From: a virus
Lineage: Duplodnaviria > Heunggongvirae > Uroviricota > Caudoviricetes
Virus record (IMG/VR): IMGVR_UViG_2778261530_000005
DNA: 44,441 nucleotides
Strand: one strand, 5' to 3'
The notes under the pieces were generated by a model. The model was not told where the DNA came from, made no database searches, and saw only the letters and a program-made list of their open reading frames with translations. The translations under genes and the position numbers were made by a program. Shown piece by piece: positions 2,064 through 12,372 of the stretch; positions within the stretch are counted from its first letter, which is position 1, and each line of letters starts with the position of its first letter.

Positions 2064-2163
2064 ACCTCTTACGATATGACCGCCAGTAAATATACAGAAT
2101 ACTGGCGGACGTGATTGATTTTTAATAATCAGCTATGAAGTTATAATTTGGATATAATGCAAC

Positions 2164-7696: not shown

Positions 7697-8091
7697 AATT
7701 ATCTCCATTTTTACAAATGAATTTTGTCGATGCGGTGCCTGGTGCCTCCAGGTGACGTTAACCAGTTAACAATTAACGCCGGATAATCCACCCATAACAC
7801 TGATGCTTTTAACTGTGCCGCGTGCGCTTAGCCGCATTCACCGCATCACAAAATTCACTTTAAAAAGGGGCGGCAGGGCAGCCACGGAGTAGAACTGATG
7901 CCGCCAAAGACTAGACACAGCAATGTCGTTATTTACAACCGGAGGCGCACTCCCACCATTTAAATTTAACAGACAAGACCGACTCTTTATGAATACCGGA
8001 AATGCGCCTTCGTGTTGTGCGCCTGTCTTTTTACCACTTCAGGCTCGGTGGTATACTGGAGTTCTCACACAACCAGTAATAAGGTATTCCT

Positions 8092-8286: not shown

Positions 8287-8470
8287 TTGCTTCTGTAGCG
8301 GCATGAACAACTGTTTTTGCCGCCTCTTCAACTTCCTTGTCTGGACGACCAGCCTTTACTTTTTCTGCAATGACCTCCAGCACAGTTGGAAGAACCTTGC
8401 TAATAAGCATGGCTGCCACATCTTTGCTGCACAATTTACCGTTAATAACAACCAGATCTTCACCAACCAT
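8252..8470 (-). CDS. Hypothetical small protein between kil and immunity regions
   Basis: 72-aa ORF (or 52 aa from the internal Met); position corresponds to small ydaF/ydaG-type genes in Rac. Confidence 0.3.
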   Translation of the reverse strand: MVGEDLVVINGKLCSKDVAAMLISKVLPTVLEVIAEKVKAGRPDKEVEEAAKTVVHAATEAIILKSLVSPTP

Positions 8471-8661
8471 CTTTTTTCCCCTTAACGCCGGGTGGCGGAA
8501 CTAAAACCTACAGCGCCGTGCTGTTCTTGATGGAAATATTAGTAACGCGGATATTTTAAGTCAACAGTATGGCGTATGATATTTTTGATTTGGTAACTAT
8601 GTAAATGTTTTTTCAAGGGAAAAATATTAGTTATACAGCTGATTTGCAGAAGTTATGGCAC

Positions 8662-8693
8662 AAAAAAAACCGACTAAGACGTCGGTTTTTTTG
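8662..8693 (-). terminator. Bidirectional rho-independent terminator downstream of the repressor gene
   Basis: AAAAAAAACCGAC…GTCGGTTTTTTT: hairpin flanked by A-run and T-run. Confidence 0.5.
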
Positions 8694-8718
8694 TTGTGGA
8701 TGGGGTAGTGAGCGGTGG

Positions 8719-9180
8719 CTACTGGTTACGTTTCTTTAGTGCCAGCATGTTCTCGAAGGCTTCCTCGTAGAGCTTGTTTAGTCCACGTAGCTGGTTAAGG
8801 AGTTTGGCTTTTTCTGACGCAGGTAGAATCTCGAAGAGGTTAAGTAACTCTGCCTGTTCTTCATTGACCAGCCTCCATCCGTTGCCTGAAAAACTATCAT
8901 CATAAGTATCTGATGATCTTACATAATTCATTAAGTCTTTAAGGTCTTCTCGAATGTCCTCTGGTTTTACCTTTAACAGAACCGCAAATTTTAGCGCAGC
9001 GTCGGTATTTACCGGTATCTTGCCGTTCAGATACTGGCTAACGGTGCCTTGAGATTCGAATCCCAACAACTCAGCCGCCAGCTCTTGAGTCAGCTTCAGC
9101 TCTTTTTTTCTTGCATTCCATGCGGCTTTTAAATTCTTGCTCGCTTCTGGAGTTGCAATCACTTCGCGTGTTTTTTTCAT
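8719..9180 (-). CDS. Prophage repressor (HTH, RacR-like; no LexA-type peptidase domain)
   Basis: 153 aa with helix-turn-helix (LTQELAAELLGFESQGTVSQYLNGK), divergent from the cro-like gene across an operator-containing intergenic region. Confidence 0.7.
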   Translation of the reverse strand: MKKTREVIATPEASKNLKAAWNARKKELKLTQELAAELLGFESQGTVSQYLNGKIPVNTDAALKFAVLLKVKPEDIREDLKDLMNYVRSSDTYDDSFSGNGWRLVNEEQAELLNLFEILPASEKAKLLNQLRGLNKLYEEAFENMLALKKRNQ

Positions 9181-9186
9181 ACATAG

Positions 9187-9214
9187 AGTTTATTTGTTTT
9201 ACCAATATTATCAA
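9187..9214 (-). promoter_or_regulatory. Candidate repressor-maintenance promoter giving a near-leaderless transcript
   Basis: On the minus strand TTGATA (-35), 16-bp spacer, TAAACT (-10), ending 6 nt before the repressor ATG. Confidence 0.35.
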
Positions 9215-9216
9215 AG

Positions 9217-9255
9217 ATAGTCTGACTATTGATCTTTAAAATTAGCGGAGCTAAT
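9217..9255. promoter_or_regulatory. Two perfect palindromes, candidate operators
   Basis: ATAGTCTGACTAT (9217-9229) and ATTAGCGGAGCTAAT (9241-9255), overlapping the -35 and -10 of the divergent promoters. Confidence 0.4.
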
Positions 9256-9257
9256 AT
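9229..9257 (+). promoter_or_regulatory. Candidate PR-like promoter for the cro-like operon
   Basis: TTGATC (-35, 9229-9234), 17-bp spacer, TAATAT (-10, 9252-9257), about 30 bp upstream of the cro-like ATG. Confidence 0.45.
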
Positions 9258-9287
9258 TTGCTCGAGGCATAACGTAGAAGGTTGGCT

Positions 9288-9563
9288 ATGAACTTAAGAG
9301 ACTATTTAAAAGAGAAACATATCACCCAGCTACAGTTTGGGAAGCTAACGGGTTTATCTCAGGTGCATGTAAGTCGAGTGCTGGGGGGCTATGAAAGATT
9401 CAGCCCTGAAAAAGCATTACGTGTTGCTGAAGTAACGAATTTCGAGGTTACACCTCATGAACTCCGGCCTGATATCTACCCGAATCCGACCGATGGTTTA
9501 CCTGTTGGATGTAAGGCTAACACACAAAATGCACAGGAGTTGATTCATGAAAATCAGGCATGA
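9288..9563 (+). CDS. Cro/YdaS-like HTH regulator
   Basis: 91 aa from MNLRDYLKEKHITQLQFGKLTGLSQVHVSRVL…; HTH; first gene of the rightward early operon; GAAGG ribosome-binding site. Confidence 0.6.
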   Translation: MNLRDYLKEKHITQLQFGKLTGLSQVHVSRVLGGYERFSPEKALRVAEVTNFEVTPHELRPDIYPNPTDGLPVGCKANTQNAQELIHENQA

Positions 9564-9969
9564 GCACATCGAATCAGTGCTGTTAGCCCTGGCCGCTGAA
9601 AAAGGGCAGGCATGGGTAGCCAATGCAATTACTGAAGAATATCTGCGCCAGGGGGGCGGCGAATTGCCCTTGGTACCAGGCAAGGACTGGAATAATCAGC
9701 AGAACATCTATCACCGTTGGTTAAAAGGTGAAACGAAAGCGCAAAGGGAAAAAATTCAGACACTGATCCCTGCGGTTCTGGCAATTCTTCCGCGCGAGCT
9801 GCGTCACCGACTCTGCATCTTCGATACCCTGGAACGCCGTGCATTACTGGCGGCGCAGGAAGCGTTGAGTACGGCAATTGATGCGCATGATGATGCAGTC
9901 CAGGCCGTTTACCGGAAAGCACATTTCAGCGGTGGTGGGTCGCCCGGTGATTCTGTCGTAGTGCATTGA
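9547..9969 (+). CDS. YdaT-like protein (putative toxic partner of the YdaS-like protein)
   Basis: 140 aa, same length and position as Rac YdaT; overlaps the cro-like gene. Confidence 0.5.
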   Translation: MKIRHEHIESVLLALAAEKGQAWVANAITEEYLRQGGGELPLVPGKDWNNQQNIYHRWLKGETKAQREKIQTLIPAVLAILPRELRHRLCIFDTLERRALLAAQEALSTAIDAHDDAVQAVYRKAHFSGGGSPGDSVVVH

Positions 9970-10046
9970 TTGAAATTAATCGTGCCGGATTGTTTTGTTC
10001 GGTATCAGTTAAATGTAACGCTGCGAGCGTTACAAGGTGAAAACAA

Positions 10047-10835
10047 ATGGCTTCAAACTGGATAAAGCTCGAGGTTATTACGCCGGATAAGCCGGAAATA
10101 TTCAGGCTTGCTGAGATTCTGAATATTGATCCAGATGCCGCATTAGGGAAGGTTATTCGCTTCTGGGCATGGGCGGATCAACAAATGATAGACGGTAATG
10201 CAGATTGTAACGCTCGCGGCGTTACAAAAAGTGCAATAGATCGCATCACTTTTATGGCTGGTTTTGCTGATGCGTTAATTCAGGTTGGATGGCTGGTCGA
10301 AAATGACGTTGGGCTTTCTCTACCTAACTTTGAACGCCATAACGGAAAAAGCTCTAAAAAACGGGCGGTTACAAACGAGCGAGTTACAAAAATACGTGAA
10401 CTGAAACGAAAAGGTAACGCTGCCGGCGTTACACAAACGGATCAAAAAGCGTTACCAGAGGAAGAGGAAGAGGAAGATCTAAATACTGATCTCCCCCTAA
10501 ATCCCCCTCGCCAAAAACGAGCGTCTAAAAAATTCGAGCCGGAGGCTATTGAGCTGCCCGATTGGTTGCCGGAAACACTCTGGCATGAGTGGGTCCGGTT
10601 CAGACAGGCATTGCGAAAACCGATTCGAACGGAGCAGGGCGCTAACGGGGCGATACGGGAACTGGAAAAATTCCGTCAGCAGGGTTTTACACCTGAGCAG
10701 GTGATTCGACACAGCATCGCCAATGAATACCAGGGCCTGTTCGCGCCGAAAGGTGTTCGGCCTGAGACGTTGCTCCGACAGGTTAACACCGTCTCCTTGC
10801 CGGACAGTGCGATCCCGCCAGGCTTCAGGGGGTAA
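10047..10835 (+). CDS. Replication initiation / replisome-organiser protein (YdaU-like)
   Basis: 262 aa directly upstream of the DnaC-like loader; acidic linker (EEEEEEDL). Confidence 0.5.
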   Translation: MASNWIKLEVITPDKPEIFRLAEILNIDPDAALGKVIRFWAWADQQMIDGNADCNARGVTKSAIDRITFMAGFADALIQVGWLVENDVGLSLPNFERHNGKSSKKRAVTNERVTKIRELKRKGNAAGVTQTDQKALPEEEEEEDLNTDLPLNPPRQKRASKKFEPEAIELPDWLPETLWHEWVRFRQALRKPIRTEQGANGAIRELEKFRQQGFTPEQVIRHSIANEYQGLFAPKGVRPETLLRQVNTVSLPDSAIPPGFRG

Positions 10836-11610: not shown

Positions 11611-12372
11611 ATGGAAACCGTTTTTGATGCACTGAAAGCAATGGGAAAAGCCACGTCGGTAGAACTGGCTGCGCGACTTGATATCAGTCGTGAAGAAGTG
11701 CTGAACGAGCTGTGGGAACTGAAAAAGGCTGGATTCGTTGATAAAAGCGTATACACCTGGCGTGTGGCCGATAACAACGTTCAGCAGGAACATCCAGTGC
11801 CGGAAGAACAGCCGGAAGAAATCGCCACGGCAACAGTGACGAAAATATCGGAGTGCGATTTAACCGCGACGATTGAACAACGTGGTCCACTAACTGCGGA
11901 TGAACTGGCTACGTTGTTCGGTACCACATCACGCAAAGTGGCTTCAACGCTGGCAATGGCAATCAGCAAGGGGCGTCTGATTCGCGTAAATCAGAACGGT
12001 AAATTTCGTTACTGCATACCAGGTGATAATTTACCAGCAGAGCCGAAAGTTGAATCGGTAGCGGAAACCGATGGTAAAGCCTTTCCTCAGCCAGCCGGTG
12101 TTGCGTTACCGGTACAGAAAGATGCAACACAGGAAGATATTAAAACAGAAACTGTGGCGGACATTGTGCAGTCGTTGCCATCGTTTACCGAAACGCGTGC
12201 GAATGACCTGATTTTACCATCACTGCATCTGGCAAACCGCGAACTGCGTCGGGCGAAAAATCATGTCCAGAAGTGGGAGCGTGTCTGCGCCGCGCTGCGG
12301 GAGCTGAACAAGCACCGGGATATTGTTCGACAGATTACTGATTCTTCCCGCAGTGTTGCATCGGAAAAGTGA
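11611..12372 (+). CDS. Hypothetical protein with winged-helix-like N-terminus
   Basis: 253 aa from [13 protein letters not shown]… with GGGAGG ribosome-binding site; the track's upstream extension overlaps the dnaC-like gene. Confidence 0.45.

Follow-up and report, generated by a model that had tools for sequence, protein, structure and literature searches.

Two small overlapping genes at positions 9288-9969 of a 44,441-nucleotide stretch of Caudoviricetes DNA (IMG/VR virus record IMGVR_UViG_2778261530_000005; the whole of this stretch is referred to below as the window) raise the question of whether a prophage immunity region carries a toxin-antitoxin (TA) module or a pair of Cro- and CII-like regulators. 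The two genes belong to the ydaS and ydaT families, which are known from the prophages Rac of Escherichia coli K-12 and CP-933P of O157:H7. An original prediction, made from the letters of the sequence, had described the choice between a TA-like and a Cro/cII-like function as unresolved, a position that is out of date, as the question has been answered by experiment for homologues (PMC8630535, PMC9986795, PMC11014345, PMC11879457). We consider it very probable that the pair consists of a Cro-like (YdaS-family) and a CII-like (YdaT-family) regulator of a lambda-type immunity region, in which YdaT would activate an adjacent leftward promoter. The ydaS/ydaT pair itself is ordinary and already annotated; what is new is the apparent heteroimmune cassette in which it sits, and a regulatory architecture to which comparison with related loci points.

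The published experiments were carried out on the CP-933P and Rac (b1357/b1358) pairs. In CP-933P, YdaS binds operators between the repressor gene and ydaS, and YdaT switches on a leftward promoter that lies where ydaS meets ydaT and is otherwise silent; the two genes are not a TA system (Jurenas et al. 2021, PMC8630535). The YdaT structure combines a POU-type helix-turn-helix (HTH) domain with a four-helix-bundle tetramer, and the protein leaves a footprint on TTGATT-N6-AATCAA at the end of CP-933P ydaS (Prolic-Kalinsek et al. 2023, PMC9986795). Rac YdaT binds ATGATTCATGAAAATCAA, on its own start codon, and mutation of this box abolishes both a 29-fold activation of leftward transcription and the activation of racR expression; in the same study DNA binding required H56 and R57, the fold W58, and oligomerisation L107 and A110, and binding upstream of the host gene rcsA was also observed (Wons et al. 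2025, PMC11879457).

In the window, ydaT (9547-9969, plus strand) is an open reading frame with a ribosome-binding site (AGGAG, 9535-9539), and its 140-amino-acid product is identified as a CII-analogue activator. This protein matches Pfam YdaT_toxin (PF06254; 42.5 bits with a cut-off of 21, 9e-11) and PHROG 163, "CII-like transcriptional activator" (3e-36), and is identical to K-12 Rac YdaT at 132 of 140 residues (94%), the first 63 residues, recognition helix included, differing only at positions 4 and 13. H56, R57, W58, L107 and A110 are retained at their Rac YdaT positions, and across 26 homologues W58 is invariant and R57 nearly so. The full length aligns end to end with PDB entries 3c4r and 8bt1 (phmmer). 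Structure prediction of the 140-residue protein, which had been proposed as a check, was run with these 26 homologues as input, and the resulting AlphaFold2 model (predicted local distance difference test score, pLDDT, 82) contains helices at residues 5-19, 21-34, 47-58, 64-80, 83-88 and 95-127, the last of them long; its significant Foldseek matches in the PDB are 3c4r and 8bt1 alone (probability 1.0, template modelling score 0.6-0.7). According to the model, YdaT has a POU-like HTH and a C-terminal helix of the tetramer type, and the tetrameric state is presumed by homology. Foldseek against the PDB and Pfam revealed no recognised toxin fold or toxin family, the legacy family name aside. Similarity to lambda CII is likewise absent, with Pfam at E <= 0.01 returning YdaT_toxin only; YdaT is a functional analogue of CII and not a homologue (PMC9986795). 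As an observation in its own right, the C-terminal histidine (residue 140, 9964-9966) is invariant in the 26 homologues despite the predicted disorder of the last ten residues; it may serve as a signal for degradation or interaction, comparable to the protease-sensitive tail of lambda CII.

The upstream gene (9288-9563, plus strand) starts with an ATG at 9288, has a ribosome-binding site (GAAGG, 9277-9281) and an in-frame TTG at 9282 ahead of its ATG, and encodes a 91-residue Cro analogue. It opens the rightward operon, with the divergent repressor gene on one side and ydaT immediately following on the other. Its product matches Pfam HTH_3 (29.3 bits, cut-off 23) and PHROG 35 (repressor/Cro-type, 1.9e-26), and weakly PDB entries 8c7k and 8co2, "antirepressor protein Cro"; identity to Rac YdaS is 32% over 50 residues only. 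The order of genes after kilR (divergent repressor, ydaS, ydaT, replication initiator, DnaC-like loader, DUF1627, DUF977) places ydaS and ydaT where cro and cII stand in a lambda-type early region. The finding that a 91-residue HTH gene overlaps a 140-residue gene by 17 nt holds, and both are real genes by open reading frames, ribosome-binding sites, Pfam, PHROGs and RefSeq. The resemblance to Rac ydaS/ydaT that had been proposed from gene length and order stands in part: families, order and the 94% identity of YdaT bear it out, but Rac YdaS has 98 residues, YdaS identity is low, and the Rac genes lie 22 nt apart.

That the genes overlap here is explained by an operator. A YdaT-box, TTGATT-CATGAA-AATCAG (TTGATTCATGAAAATCAG, 9540-9557), which departs from the footprinted consensus at one position, lies across the ydaT start codon, so that the ATG (9547) falls within its spacer, and its placement relative to the ATG is the same in Rac. 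Sites resembling the box with at most two mismatches number 8 in the window, with 3.3 expected. The box forms codons 85-90 of ydaS, and codon 91 and the stop follow at 9558-9563; translated in frame with ydaS, the box plus the 6 nt after it (TTG ATT CAT GAA AAT CAG GCA TGA) give L-I-H-E-N-Q-A-stop, and the overlap of the two genes comprises 9547-9563. DNA homology to K-12 Rac starts at 9541, at the left edge of the box, and stops at 9967, at the ydaT stop; the last seven YdaS codons are operator/ydaT-module DNA. We compared 94 related loci with a locatable box, which fall into 14 unrelated left-flank clusters; their diversity comes from viral contigs and individual homologue look-ups, a scan of genome contigs having yielded only 10 loci. 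The box is joined at its left edge to these 14 unrelated sequences and overlaps the ydaT start codon in all matched loci, and where the ydaS stop falls relative to the box (ahead of it, inside it or beyond it) varies with the attached cro module. The overlap is therefore not a TA signature or a conserved coupling device, because a cro-type gene reads through the box at a mosaic junction. By sequence comparison, the locus is a mosaic, in which a different immunity cassette (repressor and cro-type gene) has been joined to a Rac-type box and ydaT module.

The operator also leaves its mark on the protein. Rac-type and CP-933P-type YdaT are only about 30% identical, yet their DNA is near-identical over the operator and the first ten codons (window 9540-9575 and loci L093-L172 of our set), and because the DNA is kept while the proteins diverge, the YdaT N-terminus, M-K-I-K/R-H-E-H-I, appears to be largely dictated by the operator and not by the function of the protein. 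In homologues of YdaS, the N-terminal HTH part is variable, and alignment shows a C-terminal tail, VTPHELRPDIYPNPTDGLPVGCKANTQN..ELIHENQA, to be common to many Cro-type proteins with differing HTH domains. The conservation of this tail of about 40 residues (window 9440-9563) across proteins whose HTH domains differ strongly is a separate observation, and it points either to another recombination joint within ydaS or to a role shared by the tail or its DNA.

What the box does is indicated by its left side. When the left flanks are read on the minus strand and positions are counted from the YdaT-box, 12 of the 14 unrelated flanks carry a TAnnnT hexamer starting at position 21 or 22, i.e. 20-21 nt from the box (TATGCT, TATCCT twice, TACAAT, TAACGT, TAGTTT, TATGAT twice, TAGCCT, TACGAT, TAGTCT and TATTCT), the two exceptional flanks showing TAAGTT (position 23) and CAAAAT (position 21) instead. 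Over the rest of the flanks TAnnnT has a background of 1.4% per position (binomial P ~1.5e-17). The hexamer is invariant at T1, A2 and T6, as is characteristic of a sigma-70 -10 element. If it occupies -12 to -7, the centre of the box lies at -41.5/-42.5, which is the classic class II activator position, and the -35 region is taken up by the box. In K-12 Rac, TATGAT lies exactly 20 nt from the box. The corresponding core in the window is a predicted PRE-like promoter on the minus strand (9507-9522), with the extended -10 TGT-TAGCCT (9522-9514) and a start near 9507. According to published primers, the YdaT-responsive PRE933P reporter fragment of CP-933P is about 118 bp long, with about 83 nt to the left and 17 nt to the right of the box, which supports independently the presence of a promoter next to the box. 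Clear cII-like features, which the original prediction had named among the grounds for its own refutation, are combined at this locus, namely the recognition residues, an operator on the ydaT ATG and a promoter-like element at activator distance.

In the sequence of events that we propose, YdaS, in the Cro role, would be made first, from a rightward PR-like promoter, and would presumably compete with the repressor (8719-9180), which would take the CI role, for candidate operators in 9181-9287. A YdaT tetramer would then bind the inverted repeat TTGATT-N6-AATCAG on its own start codon and recruit RNA polymerase to the adjacent leftward promoter, the centre of the box lying near -41.5 and the promoter having no usable -35 of its own. 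The resulting PRE-like transcript would cross ydaS in antisense and continue into the repressor gene, which would favour the establishment of lysogeny.

A second YdaT-box, TTGATT-TTTAAT-AATCAG (TTGATTTTTAATAATCAG, 2115-2132), is the only other site in the window with at most one mismatch, and it sits between the leftward xis-int genes and the rightward RalA small RNA (sRNA) gene (Rfam, 221 bits; 2168-2346). This box precedes xis (ATG 2063 or 2057) by 52-58 nt. At 20 nt on each side it is flanked by a -10-like hexamer, TATATT on the minus strand (2094-2089) and a perfect TATAAT on the plus strand (2153-2158), the end of the latter lying ten bases before the RalA gene. The same box stands upstream of xisR in K-12 Rac, where TAACAT and TACAAT lie equally far from it and the int-xis module is unrelated; homology to Rac begins exactly at 2115. 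Near-consensus boxes, with TAnnnT at 21/22 on the side of the integration genes, also occur in prophages of Klebsiella, Raoultella, Lelliottia, Enterobacter and Buttiauxella, with other int/xis modules, so that a box upstream of xis-int is found in the window, in K-12 Rac and with four further unrelated int/xis module types (window 2115-2132; L002 3504-3521; L010 5220; L011 7362; L012 315; L177 4356; L178 8269). The int-side TAnnnT at position 21 or 22 is present in five of six flank clusters (P ~2.6e-8). In the published YdaT papers open to search we found no mention of a box at xis-int. Its presence suggests that YdaT may also drive a PI-like promoter, an antisense-RNA promoter, or both.

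The int-side hexamer always lies within a GC-rich inverted repeat, specific to each int/xis module. In the window this repeat occupies 2080-2108 (CCGCCAGTA, an 11-nt spacer and TACTGGCGG), and equivalents occur in L002, L010, L011, L012, L177 and L178. PRE-side flanks generally have no such repeat, with an exception in one of 13 control flanks (L177). We ruled out an intrinsic terminator at this repeat, since neither strand has a T-run after it; the repeat could act as an operator covering the -10, or form an RNA hairpin in read-through transcripts only. Two further sites in the window resemble the box. A perfect palindrome in the DUF1627 gene, CTGATT-CGCGTA-AATCAG (11977-11994), was rejected as a third box: it has no flanking -10-like hexamer, some relatives have AACCAG, and it is probably a coding coincidence (L-I-R-V-N-Q). 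A weak box-like site with two mismatches, TTGATTGAAATTAATCGT (9966-9983), lies over the ydaT stop, at the right edge of the Rac homology, and has no flanking hexamer.

Taken as a whole, the YdaT family would control a small lambda-CII-like regulon through one promoter design, an 18-bp palindromic box at -41.5/-42.5 combined with a -10 only. A PRE analogue would be located by the box and not 190 bp off, and a second copy, kept in at least five unrelated int/xis modules, would stand at xis-int and, in Rac-type phages, equally far from the -10 of the RalA antitoxin sRNA gene. The operator would also set the YdaT N-terminus and serve as a recombination joint between immunity cassettes. We regard the odds for and against this broader proposal as about even.

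Other readings of the locus have to be weighed against these. The names "YdaS_toxin" and "YdaT_toxin" in Pfam and "toxin YdaT family protein" in RefSeq imply a type II TA-like module that would stabilise the prophage or abort infection, with YdaT as toxin and the HTH protein encoded ahead of it as antitoxin and autorepressor. Two small overlapping genes with the HTH protein first would fit, as in HigBA/HipBA-type systems, YdaS has matches to the curated antitoxin families HigA and Y4mF in NCBIfam, and overexpression of Rac YdaT leads to filamentation and death. The antitoxin matches are sub-threshold, however (HigA 18.9 bits against a cut-off of 47.7, Y4mF 16.2 against 71.65), and YdaT has the fold of a POU-like HTH with a four-helix-bundle tetramer and no other PDB match. 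In K-12, YdaT alone is toxic or growth-reducing, but co-induction of YdaS has no additive effect, and the toxicity originates outside the rac locus and is relieved by inactivation of rcsA (Gucwa et al. 2023, PMC11014345). For Rac YdaT, 94% identical to the protein here, dependence of the toxicity on DNA binding and on rcsA, with no rescue by YdaS, has already been reported; thus, unlike in HigBA/HipBA-type systems, there is no toxin fold and no neutralisation by the partner, and the harm comes about through activation of a host gene. CP-933P YdaT neither activates rcsA nor is toxic (PMC8630535, PMC11879457), operator and mosaic junction account for the overlap, which Rac lacks, and the pair sits exactly at the cro/cII place of a lambdoid early region. 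On fold, antitoxin models and published genetics we reject the TA reading, which now has a very slight chance of being right. Since the first 63 residues are nearly identical to those of Rac YdaT, growth inhibition and filamentation on overexpression of the YdaT studied here are expected nevertheless, and by analogy such toxicity would be an off-target effect via host rcsA, as shown for Rac. The overlap could also matter in itself, through translational coupling that sets the YdaS:YdaT ratio, or through YdaT on its own start codon blocking rightward transcription or translation. The ydaT ribosome-binding site and ATG lie inside ydaS with the operator covering both, and the box is always over the ydaT ATG; against this, the position of the ydaS stop varies among relatives so that the overlap as such is not conserved, and YdaT at the Rac box hardly altered ydaT expression (PMC11879457), which leaves a functional overlap improbable.

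A further alternative concerns the position of the promoter. YdaT could be a CII analogue whose target promoter is remote from the box and well inside ydaS, as suggested for PracR4 of Rac, with the hexamer being an auxiliary half-site, like the weak left and right operator (OL/OR) sites of CP-933P, and not a -10. The 29-fold activation in Rac has been assigned to PracR4, about 190 bp from the box and inside ydaS (PMC11879457), CP-933P footprints at high protein concentration extend over about 95 nt at the main site, the YdaT tetramer has two DNA-binding faces (both PMC9986795), and some hexamers (TATGAT) resemble part of the half-site TTGATT. The activation assay in Rac, however, mutated only the box and not PracR4 (PMC11879457), invariance at T1, A2 and T6 typifies a sigma-70 -10 and not TGATT, and the CP-933P reporter fragment has room only for a promoter adjacent to the box. 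A Rac-like reverse promoter deep in ydaS was looked for separately in a consensus scan of 8450-10100, in which ydaS showed no leftward promoter reaching 9 of 12 matches. Action at a distance is in our view unlikely, though somewhat less so than a functional overlap. The published assignment to PracR4 nevertheless counts against a promoter beside the box, and several other points weigh against a Cro/CII-like pair that works as we propose: the predicted -10, TAGCCT, is weak; YdaS passes the threshold of Pfam YdaS_toxin (PF15943), a family that its homologues carry, only marginally (30.9 bits, cut-off 30); the spacer between the repressor gene and ydaS, unlike that of Rac, contains YdaT-like sites at background only (4-5 mismatches, with 4.3 per kb window-wide at up to 4); and, with regard to the second box, excision of Rac in K-12 is not triggered by YdaT overexpression and is triggered by YdaS (PMC11014345).

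The cassette that the box and ydaT have been joined to contains the repressor gene on the minus strand (8719-9180), which encodes a 153-residue CI analogue with an N-terminal HTH (Pfam HTH_3, PHROGs repressor families). A relationship to RacR was considered and rejected, as no similarity could be detected and the only match was a sub-threshold one to the DicA subfamily. The S24 peptidase domain is absent from the protein, and without a peptidase domain, induction by RecA-stimulated self-cleavage is unlikely. Between the repressor gene and ydaS lies the putative divergent promoter/operator region (9181-9287), which was delineated from the sequence, a consensus scan and palindromes. A candidate PR-like promoter reads rightward (TTGATC, 9229-9234, a 17-nt spacer and TAATAT, 9252-9257), and a candidate PRM-like promoter reads leftward on the minus strand (TTGATA, 9214-9209, a 16-nt spacer and TAAACT, 9192-9187), from which the repressor mRNA appears to be leaderless. 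Three copies of the 9-mer AAATATTAG are present in 44 kb, where 0.37 would be expected, all of them in the immunity region (8534-8542, 8622-8630 and 9251-9259), and the copy at 9251-9259, on the reverse strand, lies within the palindrome GAGCTAATATTTGCTC (9248-9263). Copies at 8534 and 9251 cover the TAATAT -10 elements of the PL-like and PR-like promoters, and we propose the AAATATTAG copies as candidate OR/OL operators for the repressor and YdaS. The PL-like leftward promoters (8605-8576 and 8564-8536, minus strand, with the AAATATTAG copies at 8534 and 8622) lie beyond a bidirectional intrinsic terminator located just after the repressor gene (8663-8692), which has a perfect 12-bp stem with A and T runs (AAAAAAACCGAC...GTCGGTTTTTTT).

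Compared with known systems, the locus is closest to Rac, with which it shares the position of ydaS/ydaT between the repressor gene and the replication genes, the same operator on the ydaT start codon, and homologous recET, kilR, ralR/RalA and ydaV-like flanking modules. Its immunity specificity differs from that of Rac because the repressor is unrelated to RacR and YdaS shares only the short stretch of similarity given above; also unlike Rac, which has a gap between ydaS and ydaT instead of an overlap, this prophage retains nearly complete late genes. The CP-933P pair (PDB 8bt1; Cro 8c7k/8co2) has what the model indicates to be the same fold and tetramer design, an operator at the end of ydaS on the ydaT ATG, and nearly identical DNA there (TTGATTCATGAAAATCA(A/G)GCATGA(A/G)CACATC), whereas the proteins are about 27-31% identical and the CP-933P immunity region contains paaR2-paaA2-parE2. 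The parallels with lambda are those of arrangement: the order cI, cro, cII and replication genes, a leftward, otherwise silent promoter at the cro/cII junction with a transcript antisense to cro, and, as for the CII-dependent set PRE, PI and PaQ, a second site at the integration genes beside an antisense RNA gene. There is no sequence homology to lambda and no match to a Pfam CII or Cro family; YdaT is a 222-symmetric tetramer on an inverted repeat, in contrast to CII on a direct TTGC repeat (PMC9986795), and the second box lies upstream of xis and not inside it.

The pair is thus a further heteroimmune version of the Rac/CP-933P immunity region, which databases still mislabel as "toxin". For a family found in about a third of complete E. 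coli genomes, the comparison yields testable regulatory predictions with respect to the promoter site, the integration genes, RalR/RalA, and the operator at mosaic junctions. If these are true, the analogy to lambda CII (PRE, PI and an antisense RNA) would be complete for a structurally unrelated activator, and the distance model for Rac would be corrected.

The window as a whole is a Rac-like lambdoid prophage of E. coli. Its insertion point adjoins yebY, int is encoded on the minus strand (734-1810) together with xis, RalR, recT, recE and kilR, and the set of late genes (lysis, head, contractile tail) is nearly complete. A 1.6-kb region around ydaS/ydaT matches the E. coli BCE049 chromosome at 100% identity, and there RefSeq labels the two products "YdaS family helix-turn-helix protein" and "toxin YdaT family protein". 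Part of the region is matched by 1641 of 5426 complete E. coli genomes, and the exact combination is found in only 40. Two further RNA loci were recognised by Rfam: the DicF antisense RNA (7868-7919, minus strand) downstream of the kilR region, and the host SraC/RyeA-SdsR/RyeB sRNA pair (462-606) directly outside the integrase gene, which marks the prophage-host boundary.

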